Assembly: GCF_006345805.1 (NCBI RefSeq)
Contig: NC_043004.1
Coordinates: 87,172,001 to 87,236,000, forward strand
Reading direction: 5' to 3'
DNA from: Octopus sinensis
Lineage: Eukaryota
DNA length: 64,000 bases
In this document: positions 8,786 to 47,890 of the stretch, one piece after another
Position numbering within the stretch: the stretch's first letter is position 1
Layout of the letters: each line of letters starts with the position of its first letter
Notes under the pieces: model-generated
The model's database searches: none
What the model saw: the letters and a program-made list of their open reading frames with translations, nothing else
Told to the model about the DNA's origin: nothing
Program-made: the position numbers and the translations under genes

Positions 8786-9129
8786 TATTAATAGTAATTT
8801 TTATTAACTTTTATAGCTTTAGAATCTTATGAACTGTACCACGGATTTAATTATTATTTTTCATCTCCATATATGTTAGCCTTTTTTTTATATATATTTA
8901 AAAAAAAACTATTAGCCAAATATGTATAATATCGGTACTTATTGATATTAATATATACACTATTATATATTTTGTTTATTTTGTTCTGTTTACCTTCCTT
9001 TTTGTACAAATGTGTATTATATTATATAAGTATAGCTTTATGATGTATAAGTTTTTATATTTTACATTTTTATATTTTATATTTATATGTATATGATTGT
9101 ATAATATTTTTCACTATTATAACAAATTT

Positions 9130-9250
9130 AATTTATTCTCTGAAGAGGCCGTGGGGCATCCTTGTTATGCCTCATTTATACCTGCCTTTATGGCTTATAG
9201 GTTAAATGAGGTATGACTGTCCTCACTGCCGAAACAGCTGTCAGTTTTGA
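9130..9250 (+). ncRNA. Type I hammerhead ribozyme motif (Penelope-type, long stem II), right-arm copy
   Basis: CTGAAGA 9140-9146, G10.1:C11.1 pair (9147:9230), stem II GGC-c-GTGGGG / CCTCAC-t-GCC, GAAA 9231-9234, palindromic stem III ACAGCTGT, GUC triplet ending at 9242. Stem I is weak (2 bp, then U-U mismatches). Confidence 0.72.
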
Positions 9251-10004
9251 TTTATTTGCATATTATATTTGAAAATTTTTACTTATATCTCTTTATCTTT
9301 TTACTATTACTGTATATCTCATTTCATTTTGTGTATTGCCTTTACTCATATGTAATGGTGTATTAAAGTATGGATTGAGTATCATCGGATAGTTGATGTT
9401 TTACTGATTTAAGTATATTTCTCCATTCTCTAATTTGTAATATATATATATATATATAATATATATATATATAATATAGGGAGAGTTCACAAAAAAAAAA
9501 CAAAAAACAAAGACAGGTGGTGTAGACAACAACAGATGTATTAGTATAACGCTCAGGAATTGAAAAAGTCTTTTATGTTTTGAGCCTACGCTCTTCTACA
9601 GAAAGGGGCATATATATATATATATATAAGATATATAAGAAATAATTAAGATTCAGTTGAATTGGGTACTTAAGTTGAAGCACCAAGTCTGTCCAATATC
9701 ATCTGTACAGCTCTAAATCATTGTAGACTTTAGATATTTTCCCCTAAATTCATTCTGATACAATAATAGCAAAAAGACTCAATGTATTCTAAATCCCTAA
9801 TAATGATGAAAGATTTGCTAAAAAATTATAATGGAGTATCCTGTATGTTGGAAATCTATATGGTCATATGCTTCCGAGGAGAGCAGTTTATTTCAAATTG
9901 ATGTAATGTGTGCATTGATCTATTAAATGGAGCCACTTGAAATGGCTGTAATGCACTAATTACCTTGACATTCCTGTTACTTATTTGCTTGTGTGTGTGT
10001 ATAG

Positions 10005-10385
10005 TCATGGCTAATGCTGGTGTCCTGTAACTGGCACCCATGTTGATAGCACGTAAAAAGCACCTTTAGGGCATTGGGCCTCATGGAGGCAATGACTGAG
10101 ACCTTTGGCATTATGCTGTGCTTAAGAAGAAGACCCATCAAGCCAAGTAAAATTGGCGTCCTGGCAGATACTGGTGTCACGCAAATGGCACCCATGCTGG
10201 TGGTACATAAAAGCACCCATTACACTCTCAGAGTGGTTGGTGTTAGGAAGGGCATCCAACCATAGAAATCTTGCCAAATCAGACTGAAGTCTGGTGTAGC
10301 CTTCCAGCTAGCCAGCCCTAGTCAAACTGTCCAAACCATGCCAGCATGGACAACAGACATTAAATGACAATGAGGATGATGATAT
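10005..10385 (+). mobile_element. RTE LINE 3'UTR-derived fragment with (GAT)n tail
   Basis: GAGTGGTTGGTGTTAGGAAGGGCATCC...CCATGCCAGCATGGA..GACATTAAATGAC..GATGATGAT matches 17625-17775. Similar tail fragments at ~5094-5250(-), 23455-23640(-), 30920-31088, 40033-40075, 49030-49090, 50740-50850(-), 56065-56236 and 59815-59898. Confidence 0.85.
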
Positions 10386-10689
10386 ATATAAAAGAACAAC
10401 TTTCATATTTATTCCTAATATGTTCTGGCAGATTTAAGCATGAATATGCTAATTGCTGTTGTGTTTCATCACAGGAAAACAGCTTCTCTTTGACAACAAA
10501 TATGTATTCACAACACACCCAATTCATTAGTACAAGGGATTCTGGGTCAGCCGGTGTTTTGCCATCATTGTGTCTTGTCAGGCAGAAGCATCTCCAGACC
10601 AATGAATCTAATTCATAGCTATCAGTTATACGTATGATCTAGTTGCGTGTACCATGATTTCACTAATTGTTTTAGGTGCCTATGCAGTT

Positions 10690-10927
10690 GTGAGCAAGCA
10701 TAGATGTCTTCTTGATTCCCACATCCATTGACCCAGTGGAACATCGAGGATATGACAGCTGGAGGGAGAGGGGGAGCTGCACCAGCACTAGGCCAGTATT
10801 TGTTTTCAACTTAGATCAACATGAAATGAAGTGTCTTACTCAATGCTGCCATTTGGGTCTAGGAATTGAATCTACAACCCTATGGTCATGAACCTAACAT
10901 GTTAACCATAAGGCCACATGCCTTCAC
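10690..10927 (-). mobile_element. Degenerate tRNA-headed SINE
   Basis: Ends ..GAAATGAAGTGTCTT.CTCAA...GGAATTGAA...AACCATAAGGCCACATGCCTTCAC, homologous to the head at 13620-13733; another copy at ~38260-38498. Confidence 0.65.
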
Positions 10928-11894
10928 ACACACACATAAGGCCACATGTCTTCACACATGCACACACACACACATATTGGCCCTGTATGTCAGATTTGGA
11001 TCAATTTATAACAAATTAATGAATGCCAAATAATCAAGAGATGAGCCTGTTCTAAAGAGCAATCAATATTTTAGTTAGAAAAATTGCCTTGTGGTATTTA
11101 GTTTCAGCACTTTATATTTTGTGTTCAGATCCAACTTAGGTCATCTTTATTTTTCACCCTTCTGGGACCAATAAAATAAAGTGCTAGTCACATACTAGCA
11201 TTGATAAGATCAACTACACCCTTCCCAAAATATTCGACCTTATGCTAATAATTTAGTAATAGTAAACAAAACCAAAGGAAAATATGATATTTGGATCAAT
11301 TGTTGAGATTTTCCAGCATCACAAAAAAAAGTGATGTGAAGATTAATCAATCTTTTCAGCCCTGTTTTGCTAAAGGAGCTCTGAAAGGTTAATCTGTTTT
11401 CCTTTTGATCCTTATATGAAAATAACTTTATTTGTGTAAAGACTTTGCTTTTATAATAGTTCAAATTGTTAATAACAACAATGGCTCTTTCCTTGGCCAT
11501 ATGCCATGGAAAGAAGTAAATGACATAAAATGCTTTTATAAAGAATATAGATTGAATTTGAATGTCTCATTCTTTGGTATGTTTACGTATTATTGATCTC
11601 ATTATTGGCAAACACTGAATGTCTCACAGGTAAGACGTGGGTGGATTCAGTATTTAAACATAAGCTGGAGGAAAATTAATCATACACACACACACATATA
11701 TATTACAATCTGTCTTATCTTATCTTGATGAAACCACTACACTATACGGTAAATATATTTTCCCTTTTTACTGTATTTGAAGAATAAATTCAGTTTCATG
11801 GTTGTCTTTGGAAATTCCAAAATTATTATTATAAAAGCAGAGAGCAACCTTGTACTTTTTTCTGAAAATCTAAAATTACTAATACCAAATATTA

Positions 11895-12070
11895 AGGCAG
11901 CGAGTTAGCAGAATTGTTAGTATGCTGAGCAAAATGCTTAGCCACCAAGGTCAACTTTGCCTGTCATCCTTTTGAGGTTGATAAAATAAGTACCAGTTGA
12001 GGACTTGGGGTGATGTAATCAACTCACCCCATCCCTTGAATTTGCTGGCCTTGTGCCAAAATTTGAAACC
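11895..12070 (+). mobile_element. SINE with conserved central domain GTCAACTTTGCCT.TCATCCTTT.GAGGT..ATAAAATAAGTAC.AGT
   Basis: Second copy at 30295-30508 with the same head (GGCAG..AG.T.GCAGAATTGTTAG) and end (CCTTGTGCCAAAATTTGAAA). Weaker copies at ~11120-11245, 47345-47430(-) and 63780-63900. Confidence 0.75.
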
Positions 12071-12457
12071 AATAATATCAAATATTAATAGTCTTTATTC
12101 TTAATTGTCTAAATTCTTAATAGTCTAAATTTTTGAAAGATTATTTTCACTCTTCACATGTTTTGGATGTTAAACTAGATTAGGTTGTTGTTGTTGTTGT
12201 TGAGGCCCAAGTCAGTCTTGATTGCTTAGGTATCTAATCAAGGCATTTCAACTATGGTCATCCTGTGTTTTACCTATATACAAGGAATCCAAGAGGATAC
12301 TATCCAATGTGTCATTTTCTCAGAAGTGGAAATATGATTTGAGAGATATTAAGCTACTATTTCTAGCAGGATGAATAACCACAAAGAGGCTCCAAAACAA
12401 GTCTTTCCTCCTTAGGCTTAAAAATACAGTAATCTATAAGTACTAAACCAATATTAC

Positions 12458-12880
12458 TTTTCTACAGCATCCATAATCCATCTAAAATTATTTGTGAATC
12501 CTTCCTTTTATCCTATATTGCATAGATCTTTCCATGAAATTTTGCAAGTCGTAAGTTTTTATTCAATTTCTGTATGATCTGCAGAAATATGTCTTAAATC
12601 TGAAAAGTCCAAGTCTTGATAATTGAATAACACTTGGTTAGCTATGTAGTCTATATCAGCTGCCTCACTTTCATCAATTTCTGCTATTGTAAATATGCAG
12701 GTCAATCCTTCCCCTATCCTTCCTAAACTGTTTGAGTCATTCATATGCATTGTGTGGTTTCATGTGAAGTAGTGAAATACCAGGATATTGTAAAGATAAT
12801 ACTTCAATATAGTTGTGTTTTATGATGAAGAATTCTTGCATTGTAGAGAATTTCATTTACCCATCCACCAAGTCTTTGAT
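12458..12880 (-). pseudogene. Exon-like segment with broken reading frames; possible decayed coding exon or lncRNA exon
   Basis: Acceptor TTGTTTCTTTAG before 12880 and GTAATA after 12458. Complex non-repeat composition; one frame gives GEGLTCIFTIAEIDESEAADIDYIANQVLFNYQDLD...EIE*KL...GFTNNFRWIMDAVEK, but all frames have stops. Confidence 0.25.
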
Positions 12881-13391
12881 CTAAAGAAACAAGTAATTGT
12901 AGTAATAAAAGGTTTTCTCAATTGTACTCGTATTAAGACTGCCCTGAGGTATAGCTAGAATGCTGACAGTTCATATAAACTAACAGACATTTATCAACTT
13001 AGCAAACTTTCTTAGCTATATTTTGGCATTGAACCTAGATCTGATGAATAACATGTATGGCTGCTTTCATAGAAAAACTGGTGTTAGAGAAATTGATTGT
13101 GTATTTGAGGTTTTATTTCTTTTATTGTGTAAAGTATGTATGTAGACAAGGCCAACCAAAACCTTGTGAGTATATTTAGCAGATGGAAACTGAAAGAAAC
13201 TCTAGTGTGTGTGTGAATGTGTATGTATGTATGTATGTAATATATATATATATAATCATCATCACTATTTAGTGTGCCTTTTTCCATGTTGACATGGTTT
13301 ACATAAAATGTATATGTATACATATGTGTGTATATATATATATATATATGTATATGTATGTGTGTATATATATGTATGTTATTTATATATG

Positions 13392-13733
13392 TAAAGGGTA
13401 AAGACCCCCTTCGGTCATGAATGACCATGGGATTTCACCTAGAAAGTTACCCTCCTAGACACAAGTCCGGGCAAGGTTGTTTATGGAAGACCAGCAGTCG
13501 CCCATGCATACCGTACTCCCCTCTCCACGCCACCAGTGTTATCCAAGGGAAAGACAAAGGTCGATACAGCTTGGAACCAGTGACGTCGCAACTCATTTCT
13601 ACAGCTGAGTGAACTGGAGCAACGTGAAATAAAGTGTTTTGCTCAAGACCACAACACGCAGCCGGTCCGGGATTGAGCTCACAACCTGACGATCGTAAGC
13701 TCGACGCTCTAACACTGAGCCATGCGCCTTCAC
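13392..13733 (-). mobile_element. Young full-length tRNA-derived SINE
   Basis: Minus-strand head GTGAAGGCGCATGGCTCAGTGTTAGAGCGTCG..GAGCTCAATCCCGGACCGG with Pol III A/B-box-like motifs and intact CpGs; head duplicated at 14258-14361. Confidence 0.85.
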
Positions 13734-13781
13734 ATTTATATATGTATGTTATGTATTATATATATATATATATATAATATC

Positions 13782-13812
<31 letters not shown>

Positions 13813-13975
13813 TATGTATAATATATATAATGTATGTATGTTATTTTATATGTATGTTATGTATATATATAGATATGTATGTATGTTATTTATATATGTA
13901 TGTTATGTATATATATATATATATATATGTATGTTATGTATGTATGTATATATATATATATGTATGTTATGTATG

Positions 13976-14016
<41 letters not shown>

Positions 14017-14430
14017 TATGTATGTATGTATATATATATATATATATATATGTATGTTATGTATGTTTGTATATATATATATATATATATGTATGTTATG
14101 TATGTATGTATATATATATATAATATATATATATATGTATGTATGTATGTATGTATATATAATATATATATGTATGTTATGTATGTATGTATATATATAT
14201 ATATATAATATATATATGTATGTTATGTATATATATATGTATGTTATGTATATATATAGTGTTTTGCTCAAGAACACAACACGCAGCCCGGTCCGGGAGT
14301 TGAGCTCAAAACCTGACGATCGTAAGCTCGACGCTCTAACCACTGAGCCATGCGCTTTCACATTTATATATGTATGTTATGTATATATATATATATATAT
14401 TATATGTATGTTATTTTATATTATGTTATG

Positions 14431-14465
<35 letters not shown>

Positions 14466-14525
14466 GTATGTATATATATATATATATATATAATATATAT
14501 ATATATATATGTGTATGTTATGTAT
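13734..14525. repeat. Compound (TA)n/(TATG)n microsatellite with higher-order unit ATGTATGTTATGT; contains a duplicated SINE head
   Basis: Directly visible; resumes after the RTE LINE at 17776-18150. Confidence 0.95.
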
Positions 14526-17500
14526 GTCAACAAGCCACCTGGTCACCTACCGATCAGGCCGGCATACAGCCAAATCGACTACATCCTTGCCAGAAAAAGG
14601 GAAAGATGGCTGCTTATAAATGCCAAAACCTTCCCAGCGAAGAATGCACCCCACAACATAGGCTGGTAGTTAGTGACTTTAGGATCAGGACTAAGAGGGC
14701 GACTAGAAGACGACCAACATGGAGAAGAAGGGCCTGGAAGCTTAAAGCCCCTGCGAATGGACAGAGATTTAGAGATATGTTACTTGAAGCCTTTGACGAA
14801 GTGGAAGGGGGTATAGCTACACATGGGGTAGAAGACAACTGGACGTTTCTGAGGGACAACCTGCTGAAAGCCGCTGACCAGATCTGTGGCTGGTGCAAAG
14901 TCCCCTTAAGACCAAAATACCTTGATGGTGGAACAATATTGTTGACAGGGCTATTAGACAAAAGAAACAGGCTTGGAAGGCCTGGAAGAACGGTGGTAGC
15001 AGGGAAGGGTATCAGACTGCCAGAGGGAAGCTAGGAGACAGGTCTATCTAGCCAGAGGGAAGCAGATAAGAGAAATTTGCCAATGTCCTGCGCCGTGAGG
15101 ATGAAGACTTGAGGTATTTCGTGTTGCAAGACAGTGTGTGAGAGAGAATCGTGATGTGGTAGGAGAGAAATGTGTTCGCATGGAGGATGGTTCACTTGCG
15201 CTAAATGAGGATGCAAAGAGAGAAGCTTGGAGACGCCACTATGAAAGGTTACTGAATGAGGAAAATGAATGGGATAAAGAGAGTCTGCCGAATGTTGACC
15301 CTACAGAGGGACCAGCTATCCGAGTTGATAGTTCCGTAGTAGCTAAGGCAATTAGAAGCATGAAGACAGGGAAAGCCCCAGCCCATCAGGAATTACTGCA
15401 GAGATGCTCAAAATATCTGGCATGTCGGCTATAACCTAGTCACCCGTATAGTCAACCAGGTGATACACGAAGGAGTCATACCCATGACTGGTGCAGCAGC
15501 ATACTAGTCAACTGCTACAAAGGTAAAGGTGATGCCCTAGATACAAATAATTACAGAGGTATCAAGCTGTTGGATCAAGTAATGAAGGTTACGGAGAGGG
15601 TCATAGCCCAACTAATTAGAGAGAGAGTTAGTTTAGATGAGATGCAGTTTGGGTTCGTGCCAGGGAAAAGTACCACTGATGCTATATTCCTGGTAAGGCA
15701 GCTGCAGGAGAAATACCTAGCCAAAGATAAGCCCCTGTACCTGGCTTTCGTTGACATGGAGAAAGCTTTTGATAGGGTCCCCCGATCCCTATCTGGTGGT
15801 CAATGAGGAAACTAGGGATAGATAATGGCTGGTGAGGACTGTGCAAGCCATGTACAGAGATGCCGTAAGTAAGGTTAGGGTTGGCAACATGTACACAGAA
15901 TTCAAAGTAGAGGTTGGGGTCCCACCAGGTTCAGTACTCAGCCCCCCCCTATTTATCATAGTACTCCAGGCAATTACGGAGGAATTCAAGACAGGCTGTC
16001 CCTGGGAGCTCCTCTACGCTGACGACCTTGCTCTTATTGCTGAGTCACTATCAGAACTGGAGGAGAAGTTCCAGGTGTGGAAGGAGGGTTTAGAATCAAG
16101 GGGCCTTAGAGTCACCTAGCTAAAACCAAAGTACTAATAAGTAGAAAGGTAGACAATCCACAAATATCTTCAGGAAGATGGCCCTGCTCGATCTGTAGAA
16201 AAGGTGTAGGTAGAAACTCTATAAGATGTACCCAGTCTAAGCTATGGCACATAAGAGGTGCAGCAATGTCAAAGGTAGGCTAACTGGAAGATAGTTTTTG
16301 TATGTGCAGATGCTCGGGAGCATTAACCTCCGAAAATCTGCAGAAAACAACTTCCGTCACTTTCCAGGGGAAACTAGAAGTAGTTGATAGCTTCCGTTAT
16401 CTAGGTGACCAAGTCAGTAGTGGGGGTGGGTGCGCTGAAAGTGTAACTGCTAGAATAAGAATAGCCTGGGCAAAGTTTAGGGAGCTCTTACCTCTGCTGG
16501 TGACTAAAGGCCTCTCGCTCAGAGTAAAAGGCAGACTGTATGATGCGTGTGTACGAACAGCCATGCTACATGGCAGCGAACATGGGCCGTGACTGCTGAG
16601 GACATGCGTAAGCTCGTGAGGAATGAAGCCAGTATGCTCCGATGGATGTGTAATGTCAGTGTACATACTCGACAGAGCGTTAGCACCTTGAGAGAAATGT
16701 TGTACCTAAGAAGCATCAGTTGTGGTGTGCAGAGAGACGATTGCGCTGGTATGGTCATGTGGCGAGAATGGATGAAGATAGGTGTGTGAGAAAGTGCCAA
16801 TCTCTAGCAGTTGAGGGAACCCGTGGAAGAGGTAGACCCAGGAAAACCTGGACGAGGTGGTGAAGCACGACCTTCGAACTTTAGCCTCACTGAGGAAATG
16901 ACCAGAGACCGAGACCTTTGGAAATATTCTGTACGTGAGAAGACCAGGCAGGACAAGTGAGCCCAGCCCACTTATGAATGCTTTCCTCCCTTGGACACAA
17001 AGACCGGTTGAGGCAAGCGAAGTCGATATAGAACCTCATCCACGACAGACACCCATGCCACCCCCCATGCTTGCGAAGACATGTTAGGGCAAGCGAAATC
17101 GAAATCGAAACCGAATTGAACCAGCCAGGATCCCTGGCCTGGTGGTACGTAAAAAGCACTATCCGACTCGTGGCCGTGGCACGTAAAATACTCCAATGCG
17201 ACCGTACGACAGGCACCCATGCCAACCCCCTTTGCTTGTGAAGACATGTTGGGGCAAGCGAAATCGAAATCGAAACCGAATTGAACCAGCCAGGATCCCT
17301 GGTCTGGTGGTACGTAAAAAGCACTATCCGACTCGTGGCCGTGGCACGAAAATACTCCAATGCGACCGTACGACAGGCACCCATGCCAACCCCCTTTGCT
17401 TGTGAAGACATGTTGGGGCAAGCGAATCGAAATCGAATTGAACCAGCCAGGATCCTGGTCTGGTGGTACGTAAAAAGCACTATCCGACTCGTGGCCGATG

Positions 17501-17775
17501 AAGCACCGCCTCGACTGGCTTCCGTGCCGGTGGCACATAAATACACCAATCTGACCGTGGCCGTTGCCAGCCCCGCCTGGCACCTGTGCAGGTGGCACGT
17601 AAAAAGCACCCACTACAACTCACGGAGTGGTTGGCGTTAGGAAGGGCATCCAGCTGTAGAAACATTGCCAGATTAGACTGGAGCCTGGTGCAGCCTTCTG
17701 GCTTCCCAGAACCCCGGTCGAACCGTCCAACCCATGCTAGCATGGAGAACGGACGTTAAACGACGATGATGATGA
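14526..17775 (+). mobile_element. 5'-truncated RTE-clade LINE (end of APE endonuclease, RT, Cys/His finger, 3'UTR, (GAT)n tail), frameshifted
   Basis: SQIDYIL and QHRLVVSDF (APE C-terminus); MKTGKAP, NYRGIKL, QFGFVPGKSTTDAIF, FVDMEKAFDRV, GSVLSP, LLYADDLAL, FRYLG, AMLHGSE (RT/thumb); ends GGACGTTAAACGACGATGATGATGAT. Confidence 0.95.
17044..17497 (+). repeat. 164-bp tandem repeat (~2.8 copies) within the RTE 3'UTR
   Basis: Unit start GACAG(G/A)CACCCATGCCA at 17044, 17208 and 17372. Confidence 0.92.
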
Positions 17776-17971
17776 TATATATGTATGTTATGTATATATA
17801 TATATGTATGTTATGTATATATATATGTGTTATATATGTAATTATATGTATGTTATGTATATATATATGTGTTATATATGTAATTATATGAATGTGTGTG
17901 TATATATATATATGTGTTATATATGTATATATATGAATGTGTGTATATATGTATGTATATATGCATGTGTG

Positions 17972-18016
<45 letters not shown>

Positions 18017-18049
18017 ATGTATATATGCATGTGTGTATATATGTATATG

Positions 18050-18082
<33 letters not shown>

Positions 18083-18240
18083 ATGTATATATGTGTGTGT
18101 ATATGTATGTATATATATATATACATGTGTGTGTGTGTGTGTGTGTATGTAAGTGTATAATTGTTAAAGAGGACAACAAACATTAAGGCAAGGCAAATAT
18201 CTCAAGTCATATACATTATTATTATTGGAAAAACTTCAAA

Positions 18241-18296
18241 GTCTTACAGCTGTTTCTGAGATATCCCAGAGTATAGGATATTCTGTCATCAGAGAC
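18241..18296 (-). ncRNA. Degenerate type I minimal hammerhead motif in a Penelope-like repeat fragment (~18165-18435)
   Basis: Minus strand: GTCT-CTGATGA-cagaATATCCTAtactcTGGGATATctca-GAAA-CAGCTG-TA-AGAC. Stem I GTCT/AGAC is perfect, stem III is palindromic, the base of stem II is mismatched. Confidence 0.7.
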
Positions 18297-18442
18297 AAAT
18301 GGAAATCTGCAATGGCTCCATAACTACCATCTCAGCTACAGCCTTGGAGCCCTAATAATCTGTTACAGCACTTAGCTAACATACCTAATCATTTAGATCA
18401 CTTGTGAACTAAACCCCCATACTTTATAAGTATGTGTATATA

Positions 18443-19741
18443 TCATCATCATCGTTTAATGTCCGCTTTCCATGCTGGCATGGGTTGGACAGTTTGACTA
18501 AGGACTGCACCAGGCTCCAATCTGATCTGGCAGAGTTTCTATAACTGGATGCCTTTCCTAACGCCAACCAACTCCAAGAGTGTAGTGGGTGCTTTTACGT
18601 GCCAGTAAGGTGACACTGGTAACGATTACACTCAAATGGTGCTTTTTAAGTGCCACTGGCACAGGAGCCAGTCAGCAGCCCTGGCAATGATCACGCTCTA
18701 GATGGTGTTTTTAACATTCCACTGGCACAGGTGCCTGTTAGGCGGTGCTGTCATCAACCATATTAGCGATTTTGATTGTGATTTTACTTGCCTCAACAGG
18801 TCTTCACAAGCAACGCATAAGTAAGCTGGTTACACTGCTGGCATAGGCCATGAGTTATGGTCTCACTTGGCTTGCCAGGTCTTCTCAAGCACAGCATATT
18901 TCCAATGGTCTCGGTCACTAGTCATTGCATTGGTGAAGCCCAATGTTCGAAGGTCGTGCTTCACCACCTCATCCCAGGTCTTCCTGAGTATACCTCTTCC
19001 ACAGATTCTATCAACTGCTAGGGTGTGACACTTTTTCACACAGCTATCCTCATCCATTTGCACCATATGTCCATACCAGCACAGTCATCTCTCTTGCACA
19101 CCACATCTGATGTTTCTTACGTCCAACTTTTCTTTCAAGGCACTTACACTCTATCTTGTATGCACACTGACATTACACATCCAGCGGAGCATACTGGCTT
19201 CATTCCTCGCAAGCTTACACATGTCCTCAGTAATCACGGCCCATGTTTCGCTGCCATGTAGCATGACTGTTCGTACACATGCATCATACAGTCTACCCTT
19301 TACTCTGAGCAAGAGGCCCTTTGTCACCAGCAGAGGTAGGAGCTCTCTGAACTTTGCCCAGGCTATTCTTATTCTAGCAGCTACACTTTCAGAGCATCCA
19401 CCCCCGCTACTGACTTGGTCACCTAGGTAACAGAAGTTGTCAACTACTTCTAGTTTTTCTCCCTGGAATGTGACAGAAATTGTTCTCTGCACATTTCCAG
19501 TGTTTATTGCTCCTGAGCATCTGCCACATACAAAAACTATCTTCCCAGTTAGCCTTTCTTTGATATTGCTGCACCTCTTATGTGTCCATAGCTTACACTG
19601 GGTACGTCTTATAGAGTTTCTACCTATGCCTTTTCTACAGATCGAGCAGGGCCATCTACCTGAAGGGATTTGTGGTTTGTCTGCCTTCCTACTTATTAAG
19701 GCACTGGTTTTAGCTAGGTTGACTCTAAGGCCCTTCGATTC
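18443..19741 (-). mobile_element. Second 5'-truncated RTE LINE (related subfamily), inverted relative to the first
   Basis: ORF 19151-19804: ESKGLRVNLAKT...CSICRKGIGRNSI...WTHKRCS...CGRC...FCYLGD...MLHGSETW; (ATC)n tail at 18443; truncated at a (TG)n tract. Confidence 0.95.
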
Positions 19742-21245: not shown

Positions 21246-23197
21246 AATCATGATATCAAAGGGCATAGAATTAGAGGTTGGTGCAGTTATGATTTAAGTA
21301 ATTAAAATATACAAATTGACTGAGTGGATGACAACAAATATACAGGAAAAGGAGAAAATAACAAAACATAACAAATAACTGAGGACCGGGAGCATCATTG
21401 CTGGTTTCAGATTTAATGCTTAAGTACATTTGAGTTCATAATTCTTCATCATATGAATGGATTTGTTTTCTCATCAACAAAATAAGGAGTTGGAAGCACC
21501 AGAATACATGGATATAAAATATGTATTTTGACCTGTTTAGCTCTCCTCTATGGTCCAGGGTAGAGTTTTGCCTTCTAATGAAGTGTGCCTCCACAATCCA
21601 AAAGTTAAGTTCACAGCACCTGTGATGTCTTGCTAAGGTTTGTGTTTTTATATTTGTCTGGTATATTCATCTGTGCTGAAAAGCTGCACTGAGTGATTTT
21701 GCCTTATTGTTTATTTTGTCAATGCGGAGACAGATACGTTGGATCAATAAAGTGACAGTTATGTCAGAATAGTGGAACAGTTTATCAAAGCAACTTCACT
21801 CAACACAGTATTCCAGCACAGATATGAAAATATAGACCTTAGCAAAACATACTGAACACTATAAATTTCTGTATTGTGGAAGCACGCTTGGTTTGGAGAC
21901 AAGACCTGACCCTGAGCTACAGAGAAGAGTTGGACATGTGGAAATACTTCTTCAATATCTCTGAGCTGTACAGATATATATTTTTGCACTTTCAACTCTC
22001 AATTTATCAATGAGAGGATGAAATCAAATCAGTTCATCAGATGAACTTGAAAGCACTAATGGCTGAAGTATTGAGACTTAAACAAGCAACAATGTTTCTA
22101 ATTGACAATTATTTTATATTTTGTTACTTTGCTATATTTGTTATCACATGTTCATCCACTTAGCTGCTCACACATCCATTTACTTGTCAGTCTATCCATC
22201 ACTTAAATCACACATCACTGCACTAACCCACTACTACCCAAAGTATAAACATGTTGTGTGAGATGCACTAATGCATTATATGCATTATACCAATCCATTT
22301 AATCTTGATGAATTAGTAGAAAGGTTTTGTGATAAACTACAGCTTGACATGTACATGTTACTTTTTACATGAGTAAAAATCTTATCCTGATTACAATAGA
22401 AATGACTCTTTGTAATTGTTTCTGACCTTATAATTTAGTCTCAGGAACTGCTCCAAGTTTTACCTAAAAGCAATTAGTTCTTGTTTTTGTTTAGCCCTAG
22501 GTATCCCTGAACAAGCTTGCTTATGGTCAAAGGTGTTTGAGACATCACTATCCTGTCTTTTATTGAGATATTATTATATCTAATACTACATTAGGCAATG
22601 TGTCCTTCCTCTCTTTAAAATAATAGTAGGATATGATTTAAGGAAAATTGATAGCTGTTTCTAGCAAGTCATTTTATCCACTAAAAATGGCAGTCAAGAT
22701 CCTCATTTGTTCATATTCCAATTAATAATAGGGGAAATATATAGAACACTATGGTCCCAGAATATAAAATGCATAGATACCAGCTGTTAAGAAACAGCCA
22801 ACTGTGATAGACATCTAATAGTTAGAAATTTAATTTTTCATGGACTCTGAGTACTGTTTCCTAAACTTCAGATAATGTACCCTTAGTACCTTATGCATAC
22901 TGTATTCTTGAACTATTCTTAGACTGATAAACTACACAGAGATGTCCAGTCACAAATATTTCATTATCATGTTCCTTATTTTCATCTTCAGCTTCTTTTT
23001 AATCTTCATGTGTGTTATTTTATGCTAGTGTTGTTAGCATAAAACAAGTACTCAATACACACTGTAAAATGGCATTAGGAAGGGCATCCAGCCACAGAAA
23101 CCAATTCAAAAATGACATTGGAGTTTGACAAAGCCCCTGTACTTTTTCCAGGTTTTGTCAAACCATTGTCTTAGGTATTCCTCGTGTGTGAAAGTAA

Positions 23198-23445
23198 AAA
23201 GTAAAAGAGTCAAGAGGAAGAGTAAGTACGGTTAGGCAGCTTTTTAATTGCTACAAATGTTTCGATGCATACAGATCCTCGTATATACAGGATTTTATAG
23301 ATCTTGTACAGGTAAATCGTTAAATAATTTAATTTAAACTTAACTTTAAATCCTGTATATATGAGGATCTGTATGTATCGAAACATTTTTAATGATTAAA
23401 AAGCTGCCTAACCATACTTACTCTTCCTTTTGACTATTTTACTTT
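23198..23445. repeat. Fold-back element with ~100-bp arms carrying a hammerhead-like 3' half
   Basis: GGAAGAGTAAGTACGGTTAGGCAGCTTTTTAAT..ATGTTTCGATGCATACAGATCCTCGTATATACAGGATTT is mirrored by AAATCCTGTATATATGAGGATCTGTATGTATCGAAACAT..ATTAAAAAGCTGCCTAACCATACTTACTCTTCC. Confidence 0.9.
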
Positions 23446-23770
23446 ATATATATAATCATCATCATCTTCATTTAATCTCTATCTTCCATTCTATCATGGT
23501 TGGACAGTTCAATAGGATCGAACAAGCTTGAGGATTGCATTGAGATCCAGTGTGTGTTTTGGCAAAGTTTCTACAGTTAAATACCCTTTCCAACACTAAC
23601 CACTTTACAAAATCTACTGAGTGCTTTTCTTGTGACACGAGCACTAGTGAAATACAGGAACAGGTATCTTGCTGTAGAAGAGACATGTGGCTACCCTGTA
23701 TTATATGAGTATTATATAAGTAAGGAGAGTAGCTGAAAAGAAGACAATGGTGGTGATAACAAGATATCAG

Positions 23771-45556: not shown

Positions 45557-46060
45557 CAGGTGCCATAATGGCTGCATGATTAAAAAGCTCACTCCCTAAT
45601 CACATGGCTTGATCAGTCCTGCTGTGCAGCACTTTGAGCAAATGTCTTCTATGATAGCCACAGGCCCACTGAAATATTAGAAAACCCCTTTGTGTGTGTG
45701 TGTATGTAGTGGGAGTGGTATTTATATATGTATATATTTATGAGTATATGTATTGAAATATATGTACATGTATATGTACAGAAACTGTTAAGCTTCTGGT
45801 GTTCGTGTATGCATATATGTCTGTGGATGTTTGTGCTTGTGTGTGTGTATACCCTTGTCTTGATATCACATGATGGTTGTAAATGAATACCAACGTCATG
45901 CAGGCAATGTTGTTTATTTCCAGTCTTCCATGAGAAATGTATCTGACTTTTGCAAATGTTACCTTGCTTGGAAACAGGTGCATCCAACTATAGACAATAT
46001 GCCTCAGCAAATTCCATCTGACCCATGTAAGCATGAATAAGTGGACATTAGACAAGATGA
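45557..46060 (+). mobile_element. tRNA-headed SINE with RTE-like tail and expanded internal microsatellite
   Basis: Homologous head (GAGCAAATGTCTTCT.TGATAGCC) and tail (TTGCTTGGAAACAGG..AAATTCCATCTGACCCATG.AAGCATG..GGACATTA). Confidence 0.75.
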
Positions 46061-46310
46061 AATCTTTATATATAAATCCATGAAACAGAATAAGAACATG
46101 ACGAATGACAATTAAAACATACGGACAGAAAGATGATACAAAGACGGACATGAAAAACCAGAACAGATCCTTCATGGCTTTCTTTTCATCAGTCAAGTTT
46201 CCAATTATCATTACAGTTTCAGCCTGTTACATTTGAAACTGTTCAAAATTGGTAGGCCCCAAAAATCTACGCTAACAGCATTAACTTTCTGGAAGAAAGC
46301 AAGCACATGT

Positions 46311-46738
46311 GTAAAACAGGCAAACAACTGGTATCAAGTTAGATTATGACATTTATACCTTTAAACATGACGGTTGAGTTGTTAAAGGAGTATAGATCAT
46401 AAGGAGAAAGGAAATAAATAGGTGTGCAGAAAGTCTCTAACAGCTGTTTCAAGAACAGATGCACAGATTATGCATCTTGTGCAAATAAATGCTAGCTATC
46501 CATATAACAGCAGTCTATTCCATTACTGAAAGGAGATTTGAGATATAGCAGAGGATGATGGAATAGATCACTGCTGCTGTTTGTTTTAGACAAGGTGCAT
46601 CTATTCTTGAAATAGCTGTAAGAGACTGTCTGCACACATTATTACTTCCTTATCATCTGTACTCATGTAACAACTTAACTGTCATATTTAAAGATATGTC
46701 ATAATCTTATCTGATACCAGTTGTCTGCTTGTTTATAC
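46311..46738. repeat. Fold-back element with ~150-bp arms carrying hammerhead 3' halves
   Basis: AAACAGGCAAACAACTGGTATCA..GATTATGACAT..GTGTGCAGAAAGTCTCTAACAGCTGTTTCAAGAACAGATGCAC (to 46464) is mirrored by GTGCATCTATTCTTGAAATAGCTGTAAGAGAC..TGCACAC..ATGTCATAATC..TGATACCAGTTGTCTGCTTGTTT (from 46595); additional inner IR TCTATTCCAT/ATGGAATAGA. Confidence 0.9.
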
Positions 46739-46959
46739 TTTTATTCTGTTGTGTAGGTACCTGCTCAGTTGATAAACTTTTTTATAGCTAATTGTCATAA
46801 GGCAGTTATAACATCCCTGCTTTTAGCTGCAGTTTAAATTAGAGTCATAGGCAGCAAGTCAACCTTGAGTATTAACTGTATGTAACTATTTTTATGTCAT
46901 CAGACATGATATTACTTGAATTCTATCTTTATGTATTATGTATTCTTCATGATGGTACA

Positions 46960-47890
46960 AAACAGAAGAGAGCTAAGGATCCAACTCGGATAGATCCCAA
47001 CCTACTCACTTAATTCATTGTTAACTCTCACCTTGTTAACTGCCTTTACAAACATAGTTTCACAACCTTATTAGCCATTCTTCTACTAGCTTCTTTTGTG
47101 CCCACTAGATGACAGAGCAAAGGAGTCTGCTAATGATATTTTTCAGATCTGCAAATGCTAGGCATAGAGGCTTATTTCTAGCTAAATATTTCTCTGGCAT
47201 TTATCTCACTAGGAAGATGACATCAGTGATTCTTCATGGTGATACAAAACAAAACTGTGTCCCTTGTAGGTTAATCTTACTTCAGATCAACTTTGCTATA
47301 ATTCCTTCACCTTTATATCAGTTTACAATAATCATTTCTATTATAGGCACAAGGCCTGAAATTTGTGGGGAGGGGGTAAGCCAATTATATTAATCCCCAG
47401 TGTGTAACTGGTACTTATTTAATCGATCCAATAATGCTGCTATGTCAGCCACTAGATATGAAACTCTTTTATTACCTGATTAACTCTTTGAGTGACTAAA
47501 CCATACCCTTCTTCACCAGATATTTTGAGCATCTGTGACTGTTTCCCTTTGGCTAGCTATTTTCCCTGCTTTCATATCCTTAACACCCTATCCATCTTGT
47601 CTACTTGAGTGGATGGTCCCTGTCGTGAGTCTTCTTGGGACAGACTCCCTCCCTCTCATGTGTTCTCCACGTTCAACAGCCCCTCATAGTTGCACCTCCA
47701 TAGCCTTTCTTTTCAGTGTCATTGAGAGTAAGTGTGCCATTATCATTTTGCTTACAGTTCTCCCTGATGATATCTTATTTCACTTTAGTACATTATTTCA
47801 ATATTCTGAACATCTTGTGCTGCTGATCCTCATACTGCAAAACATGAACAATCTTCTTTCTTTCTACTTCTCCCTCTGCCTAAATGTATT
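46960..47890 (-). mobile_element. Old RTE LINE RT fragment interrupted by a SINE piece
   Basis: Minus strand gives EKYLARNKPLCLAFADL-like sequence at ~47140-47195, homologous to QEKYLAKDKPLYLAFVDM of the young copy. Confidence 0.75.

Follow-up and report, generated by a model that had tools for sequence, protein, structure and literature searches.

The palindrome that begins at position 46311 of the window (the whole 64,000-nucleotide stretch of Octopus sinensis DNA analyzed here) consists of two 5'-truncated, decayed copies of a repeat placed head to head, likely in one insertion during which a Penelope-like element (PLE) enzyme used both ends of its cut target as primers for reverse transcription. 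A single-event origin is favored because of the adjacency of the two copies, their orientation, and a rule that relates their outer ends. As an earlier note read it, this locus would have amounted to a new route from ribozyme-bearing retroelements to MITE-like palindromes. The evidence points instead to an ordinary, old instance of a known PLE insertion architecture, here on a protein-free passenger repeat. That architecture is already published for PLEs (Craig et al. 2021; PMC8557442), and the locus is not a new class of element, such as the undescribed non-autonomous PLE class that the earlier note had envisaged.

Layout of the two-armed insertion

A palindrome search recovered inverted repeat arms at 46408-46464 and 46595-46651 (57 nt, 86% complementary) and a second arm pair at 46314-46352 and 46696-46734 (39 nt, 87% complementary), confirming that the palindrome described previously at 46311-46738 is real. 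Its extent needs correction. A BLAST search of the family reference against the window returned exactly two matches, 46554-46314 on the minus strand and 46554-46925 on the plus strand, and the right copy reaches ∼46925, which is past 46738 and 187 nt past the apparent terminal inverted repeat (TIR). The palindrome appears to stop at 46738 because the shorter arm is exhausted there. The entire two-armed insertion therefore occupies 46311-46925 and is made up of a left arm, a junction, and a right arm with its tail.

We describe both arms in family coordinates, numbered from the G of GAAAC as 0; on this scale the CUGANGA box lies at -80 and the predicted cut falls after +11. The left arm (46314-46553, minus strand) covers family positions of about -104 to +141, and its outer end, located at 46311-46314 by direct reading, is the short 3' end of the family; its score in the alignment to the long-end block (L-block) was 16, which is background level. 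The right arm (46554-46925, plus strand) covers -78 to +329 and terminates in the long 3' end, with an L-block score of 59. Only the right arm carries the "tail" (46752-46925, plus strand), the ∼170 nt that separate the short and long 3' ends of the family. The two copies meet head to head at a symmetry axis that sequence reading and alignment to relatives place at 46550-46554, with a precision of ∼2 nt, and their inner ends lie at -104 in the left arm and -78 in the right.

The arms differ from each other by ∼14-18%, and each differs from the family reference by 11-13%. Contigs from three other public runs cover the palindrome: two of 1115 nt run across 46240-47100 with 1-2 differences, and a third of 408 nt (46221-46628) bridges the axis. 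The divergence of the arms together with these contigs rules out an assembly artifact as the source of the palindrome. No run recorded as RNA was listed as holding the stretch, a result with no bearing on expression, and the contigs from one presumed-RNA run were of low depth. The flanks of the insertion are weakly microsatellite-like, with a faint repeat character, and on inspection they contain no visible target-site duplication. Directly to the left of the palindrome, positions 46179-46269 have a summed contig depth in the thousands across three runs, and this segment is therefore a very high-copy repeat. The window copy is old, with both of its boxes ruined; it is most likely inert today, and nothing suggests a present function for it.

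Both palindrome arms carry GAAAYAGCTGTWAGAGAC, and a pattern search located the outward GAAAY-AGCTGT-AGAGAC-type motif that had been noticed on each of them, as GAAAC-AGCT-GTT-AGAGAC (GAAACAGCTGTTAGAGAC) at 46433-46450 on the minus strand in the left arm and as GAAAT-AGCT-GTA-AGAGAC (GAAATAGCTGTAAGAGAC) at 46609-46626 on the plus strand in the right arm. In the left arm, this sequence spans hammerhead positions G12-A14, then helix III and its palindromic loop, H17, and the strand that forms the 3' side of helix I. The window contains 3 matches to the pattern when up to 3 mismatches are tolerated, versus 0.20 expected, the third being at 18239-18256. The two GAAAY motifs of the arms lie 159 bp apart on opposite strands.

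The arms had been thought to keep only the 3' half of a hammerhead. We found no exact CTGANGA upstream of either arm motif, in agreement with that view, but alignment to relatives with intact boxes shows that both arms retain the homologous 5'-half position as well as all of stem II. The left arm aligns as TCAGTAA-T-GGAATAGAC, with the decayed CUGANGA box TCAGTAA at 46523-46529 and the stem II 5' strand GGAATAGAC at 46513-46521 (both on the minus strand), the latter pairing with 46452-46460 (ATCTGTTCT). The right arm aligns as (AG)GATGA-T-GGAATAGAT, with a box remnant, AGGATGA, at 46552-46558, of which only GATGA (46554-46558) belongs to the copy, and a stem II 5' strand GGAATAGAT at 46560-46568 that pairs with 46599-46607 (ATCTATTCT); both features are on the plus strand. 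Read as its reverse complement, the left arm gives CTCAAATCTCCTTTCAGTAATGGAATAGAC, a full-length motif region with a mutated box. The right arm opens at GATGATGGAATAGATC, inside the box, with stem II complete and two internal deletions in loop 2. These alignments indicate that the left-arm 5' half is present but decayed and that the arms are not "3' half only"; what looks like a "half hammerhead" in a palindrome can turn out to be a full motif that has decayed or been truncated. The central hairpin reported earlier is nothing more than the palindrome as it passes through the two stem II regions and the box remnants.

Other hammerhead-like features occur in the window. At 9140-9242 (plus strand), CTGAAGA at 9140 is followed by GAAAC-AGCT-GTC at 9231-9242, with a stem II insertion of ∼80 nt, and at 18292-18240 (minus strand), CTGATGA at 18292-18286 is followed by GAAAC-AGCT-GTA at 18256-18245. 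The earlier note had called these sites, at 9231 and 18256, complete hammerheads, a description that holds at the level of motifs (CTGANGA and GAAACAGCTGT are both there) but is not backed by any Rfam match. By BLAST neither site belongs to the family, despite the common GAAAC-AGCT-GTM. A second palindrome at 23195-23448 has 101-nt arms that are 90% complementary and separated by a 52-nt spacer; its arms read outward as ...ATCGAAACATTT(G/T)TA..., and its right outer end adjoins (TA)n. It is part of a different family, probably with an insertion of the same head-to-head type.

The repeat family and its putative ribozyme

The arms are copies of a dispersed non-coding repeat that measures ∼0.82 kb in its short form and 1.0 kb in its long form. 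The 428-nt query returned at least 80 matches and at least 196 first-look candidates from its own 2.7-Gb genome, so that the copy number of the family is in the hundreds, with every count a lower bound. From this lower-bound family we drew a sample of 65 loci chosen by their likeness to the window, and the family reference was built from the same copies. A full-length 5' boundary ∼668 nt upstream of GAAAC is common to at least 14 loci. Copies otherwise begin at variable points, which lay between -15 and -150 in the first sample and between +220 and -333 across both locus samples. No open reading frame (ORF) was found in the 0.8-1.0-kb family unit, no tRNA-like head at its 5' end, and no reverse transcriptase (RT) or endonuclease domain among the window ORFs. 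With neither an ORF nor such a domain, the family is a non-autonomous retroelement and not itself a PLE.

The 3' side of the family has two alternative termini, a short end at about +140 to +165 (...GCCTGTTTATAC TTTTATYCTATTAT) and a long end at about +325 (...CATCATCAGATGTGATATTACTTGAATT), both of which often directly abut a microsatellite of the (TA)n, (CA)n, (ACAT)n, (TATG)n, or (TAGA)n type. The hammerhead-like motif lies 150-330 nt from the family 3' end, and the predicted cut site is ∼130-150 nt upstream of the short end. Solo copies in the unbiased, arm-selected sample are split between the two termini (about 14 short versus 14 long). In two long-form copies (L004 1742-2058 and L132 668-1474), foreign DNA of 300-800 nt lies precisely at the short-end site of ∼+160, and this site may also be a hot spot for later insertions or microsatellite growth. 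We also note that an antisense tRNA-like (SINE-like) sequence abuts the truncated 5' end in L003, L011, and L015, and that in L003 and L011 it sits between both arms.

Among 26 fetched loci, most of which are single-armed, GAAACAGCTGTAAGAGAC is a conserved motif, and GAAAC-AGCT-GT(A/T) is intact in 35 of 46 family copies. Upstream of the motif, many relatives read ...CTCATTCTCCCT-CTGATGA-T-GGAATAGAT...(∼50 nt)...ATCTGTTCT-T-GAAAC-AGCT-GTA-AGAGAC, which places a CTGATGA box ∼80 nt ahead of GAAAC and supplies a stem II of 9 bp, a helix III of two base pairs with a palindromic loop, and also H17 and a short helix I. The proposal that the arms derive from a retroelement with a hammerhead motif is upheld, and the observations that the earlier note named as refuting it were not made, as relatives do have CTGATGA upstream and the family has no TIR or target-site duplication signature that we could see. 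Among the 29 copies that cover the box, it is exact in 7 (as CTGATGA upstream of the motif), CCGATGA-like in 7-9, and CCA in 3. U4 is C (CCGATGA) about as often as T among the copies, and exact genome-wide 20-mers over the box gave 4 CTG versus 4 CCG; the CTG boxes may in part be products of CpG decay. One subfamily (L004, L007, L009, L017, L018, L022, and L028) carries a tandem 40-nt duplication of the module formed by the box and the stem II 5' strand, at positions of about -135 to -95, and has two CTGATGA/CCGATGA boxes 40 nt apart.

In the family alignment, stem II is paired in 243 of 286 cells (85%), versus 34-53% in slid registers, while helix III is paired in 82 of 90 cells and helix I in 99 of 135; since the structure was read from the consensus, these counts establish a possible fold only. 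The core-adjacent pair of stem II is U/U instead of G10.1-C11.1, and compensatory changes are almost absent. Minimum free energy folds of single copies recovered the three-way junction in some cases, which is weak evidence. Rfam hammerhead models had no match in the whole window at the gathering score, and none at an E value of ≤10 in 46000-47000, in 9000-18500, or in 7 relatives with intact boxes; what Rfam did match was miRNA and snoRNA noise of a microsatellite-like kind. The absence of a hammerhead match may be due to the long loop 2. Because no Rfam model matches, our statements about the hammerhead are founded on motif and pairing rather than on a curated model, and we refer to the family motif as a hammerhead-like putative ribozyme.

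Head-to-head pairs and the origin of the palindrome

Head-to-head pairs were present at 18 of the 65 loci (the window and 17 more), with a single arm at 45 loci and a tail-to-tail arrangement at 2. The arm-selected sample, comprising 40 fetched loci and the window copy, contributed 10 head-to-head cases among 41, and an independent, tail-selected sample of 24 new loci, from which 5 already-seen loci had been dropped, contributed 8, alongside 14 solo copies and the 2 tail-to-tail cases. In the latter (L121 1116-1967 and L126 1474-1799), both long ends face each other at a distance of 13-50 nt, which suggests repeated hits on one target. Partial tandems are rare in the sample, with one in L021 and perhaps another in L039. 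A search for hidden short inverted partners beside 44 solo copies returned scores at shuffle background in 40; the other 4 rose marginally above their highest shuffle (L016, 14.0/13.0; L027, 11.0/10.1; L033, 16.5/15.5; L038, 14.5/14.5), and none was convincing. This test is invalid for copies capped at -108, as their true 5' end lies farther upstream.

We classified the outer ends of the pairs by local alignment to short-end and long-end blocks with score thresholds, reading the end of L023 directly. Thirteen pairs proved to join one short and one long end (the window, L019, L032, L021, L007, L003, L011, L113, L117, L120, L125, L135, and L136). L023 is a probable further short/long pair whose long arm has an internal deletion, three pairs (L012, L124, and L130) yielded no clear class, and L039 is complex, with both arms extending past the short site. 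None of the 18 is clearly a short/short or long/long pair. We estimate that, given the solo frequencies, 13 discordant pairs out of 13 would have a probability of roughly 1e-4, and the chance adjacency of copies within 1 kb, with hundreds of copies in 2.7 Gb, is inferred to be far below 1%. The gap separating the paired arms is 0-60 nt in most pairs, microsatellite sequence lies beyond both outer ends in L023, L032, L117, L120, and L136, and no target-site duplication was evident in the 10 pairs inspected (the window and 9 others). The inner ends are scattered from -333 to +213, and the junction is unique to each locus.

We consider it likely that a PLE-type enzyme primed reverse transcription at both ends of a cut target. 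Each arm would then be a cDNA that started from one or the other of two RT start sites in the element RNA, with a different DNA end for each cDNA. At the window locus, one cDNA would have started at the short site and the other at the long site, each being copied inward; the cDNAs would have extended variable distances before their tips were joined, in this case at 46550-46554. The enzyme would have been supplied by one of the many PLEs in the genome. GIY-YIG loci number at least 5029 as first-look candidates, with open frames of up to 883 amino acids, and 147 of 150 candidates scored above E 0.001. No DNA shared with the family was found in 30 sampled GIY-YIG loci out of these at least 5029 candidates, and several of the sampled PLE loci (L085, L090, and L096) bear CTGATGA...GAAAC-palindrome-GTH motifs of a similar style. 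In one of them (L090, G000:C6:110417068-110420328), two near-identical CTGATGA...GAAAC-GATC-GTA motifs lie on opposite strands, at plus-strand offset 1022 and reverse-strand offset 2364, ∼100 nt apart in plus-strand coordinates, and form an inverted hammerhead pair at a protein-coding PLE. The family itself shares with PLE-type insertions its variable 5' truncation, shared 3' ends, inverted 5'-adjacent copy, tail at one end, and microsatellite-flanked relatives, and it lacks the single ORF with a telomerase-like RT and a GIY-YIG endonuclease.

The alternative that survives best, although we consider it unlikely, is that each pair reflects two independent insertions, a second family copy having landed beside the 5' end of an older one, for example because the element endonuclease or a local microsatellite drew repeated hits. 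The tail-to-tail loci show that separate insertions do cluster, and PLE protein reportedly nicks its own terminal repeat and other AT-rich DNA (PMC11167929). The arms also have no more private variants in common than copies paired at random do: those of the window are 82% identical over -50 to +140 and have 4 of 162 derived sites in common, which is the 55th percentile of 1024 pairs. This comparison shows that paired arms are not mutual nearest relatives and does not discriminate between one event and two; such values are expected from a consensus-like template and fit two insertions equally well. Independent insertions fare less well with the arrangement of the copies, given that 18 of 65 loci are head to head, mostly with gaps of 0-60 nt, versus 2 that are tail to tail, that short and long ends are combined in 13 pairs, with no pair clearly concordant, when solo copies are divided ∼50:50, and that microsatellite sequence lies outside both ends of several pairs, as one insertion predicts.

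Less probable still is the mechanism advanced in the earlier note, in which cDNA would fold back on a long stem II hairpin and recopy the 3' flank, leaving the 3' hammerhead half on both arms. It predicts an axis within stem II and loss of the 5' half, yet the position of that half is kept in both arms, the window axis at 46550-46554 is at or upstream of the box, the inner ends (-104 and -78) leave stem II whole in both arms, and across the family, where inner ends range from -333 to +213, only ∼7 of 34 fall within stem II or loop 2 (-73 to -1). Fold-back also predicts one common outer end, whereas the 13 pairs combine a short and a long end, each a canonical end of the family. Nearly symmetric inner ends do occur in L125 (+87/+85), L130 (-25/-18), and L136 (+37/+25), as a fold-back would produce, and a snap-back could in principle yield asymmetric inner ends too, but these same three pairs are short/long or without a clear class. 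Palindromic forms are recurrent, as the earlier note expected, with head-to-head copies at 18 of 65 loci, while the route through stem II is unsupported. Nor were the palindromic forms mobilized as a unit with identical ends, because ends and junctions are not shared between loci and no two loci have the same junction. We give almost no credence to a MITE-like DNA transposon moved by a transposase through terminal inverted repeats, for although the locus resembles a 428-bp palindrome with termini that match at 87%, a single arm is the majority form (45 of 65 loci), 5' ends are variable and inner junctions locus specific, the outer ends are unequal, with the right copy running 187 nt beyond the apparent TIR, and target-site duplications are absent from the 10 pairs inspected.

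Comparison with Penelope-like and other elements

Insertion by a PLE enzyme at both target ends, the reading we prefer, agrees with what has been described for these elements. PLE insertions often consist of a copy with an inverted, 5'-truncated copy abutting its 5' end, a tail at one end, and a bias toward microsatellites (Craig et al. 2021; PMC8557442). In the study of Frangieh et al. (2024; PMC11167929), a purified PLE protein was able to cleave both strands of DNA and to extend both of them; it initiated reverse transcription at two internal positions of the RNA that are separated by the length of the tail, with the hammerhead cut site ∼90 nt upstream of the first RT start site; in vitro, no strand difference in the RT start site was found for the lizard PLE (PMC11167929). 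The octopus family resembles this architecture (PMC8557442, PMC11167929) in its 5' truncation, head-to-head inverted copy, extension at one end, microsatellite or AT-rich targets, and hammerhead motif shortly upstream of the 3' end. A stricter version of the model is that each two-armed insertion is one double-strand priming event that uses the short site on one DNA end and the long site, ∼170 nt away, on the other. We regard this version as tentative and somewhat doubtful; if true, RT start-site choice would be strand-specific in vivo, unlike in the in vitro work on the lizard PLE. The value of the present locus is modest: it allows the rule of one short and one long end in two-armed insertions to be counted in a further family, and this rule bears on how PLE enzymes prime both DNA strands.

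The family also departs from PLEs in several respects. It has no RT or GIY-YIG ORF and is non-autonomous, its tail of ∼170 nt is unlike the published PLE tail of 30-40 nt, and the partial tandems (pseudo-LTRs) of PLEs are rare in our sample. A related outcome is known from L1 twin priming, in which the cut target provides primers for reverse transcription at both of its ends and inverted segments become joined internally. The octopus pairs are similar in that both target ends would prime and inverted segments are joined, but in L1 it is the 5' part of a single copy that becomes inverted, unlike in the family, where both arms repeat the same 3' region and two templates or two passes are therefore needed. 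The palindromic helix III may pair two template RNAs, one per arm.

At the level of the ribozyme, the minimal hammerheads of metazoan PLEs combine a long stem II with short helices I and III, of which helix III is palindromic, and have a spacer following the box; dual motifs on opposite strands, separated by 100-700 bp, have also been noted (Cervera and De la Pena 2014; PMC4209133). The family motif is similar in its 9-bp stem II, its spacer nucleotide after the box, its short helix I, and a helix III of two base pairs whose palindromic loop (ACAGCUGU) would suit the formation of dimers, and the opposite-strand GAAAY motifs of the window have a spacing like that of the dual motifs. It is unlike the PLE minimal hammerheads in lacking G10.1-C11.1, in having C at U4 in about half of the copies, and in its loop 2 of ∼50 nt. 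A further parallel exists with the metazoan non-LTR retrozymes (Cervera and De la Pena 2020; PMC7229834), with which the family shares being non-autonomous, AT-rich, hammerhead-bearing, and resident in a PLE-containing genome. Retrozymes form tandem arrays of 150-450-bp monomers, each with a type I hammerhead, and are expressed as small circular RNA; the family unit, by contrast, is 0.8-1.0 kb and is dispersed in solo or two-armed form. PLEs have been proposed as mobilizers of such hammerhead-bearing repeats (PMC7229834; Li, Clavereau and Pollet 2026, preprint).
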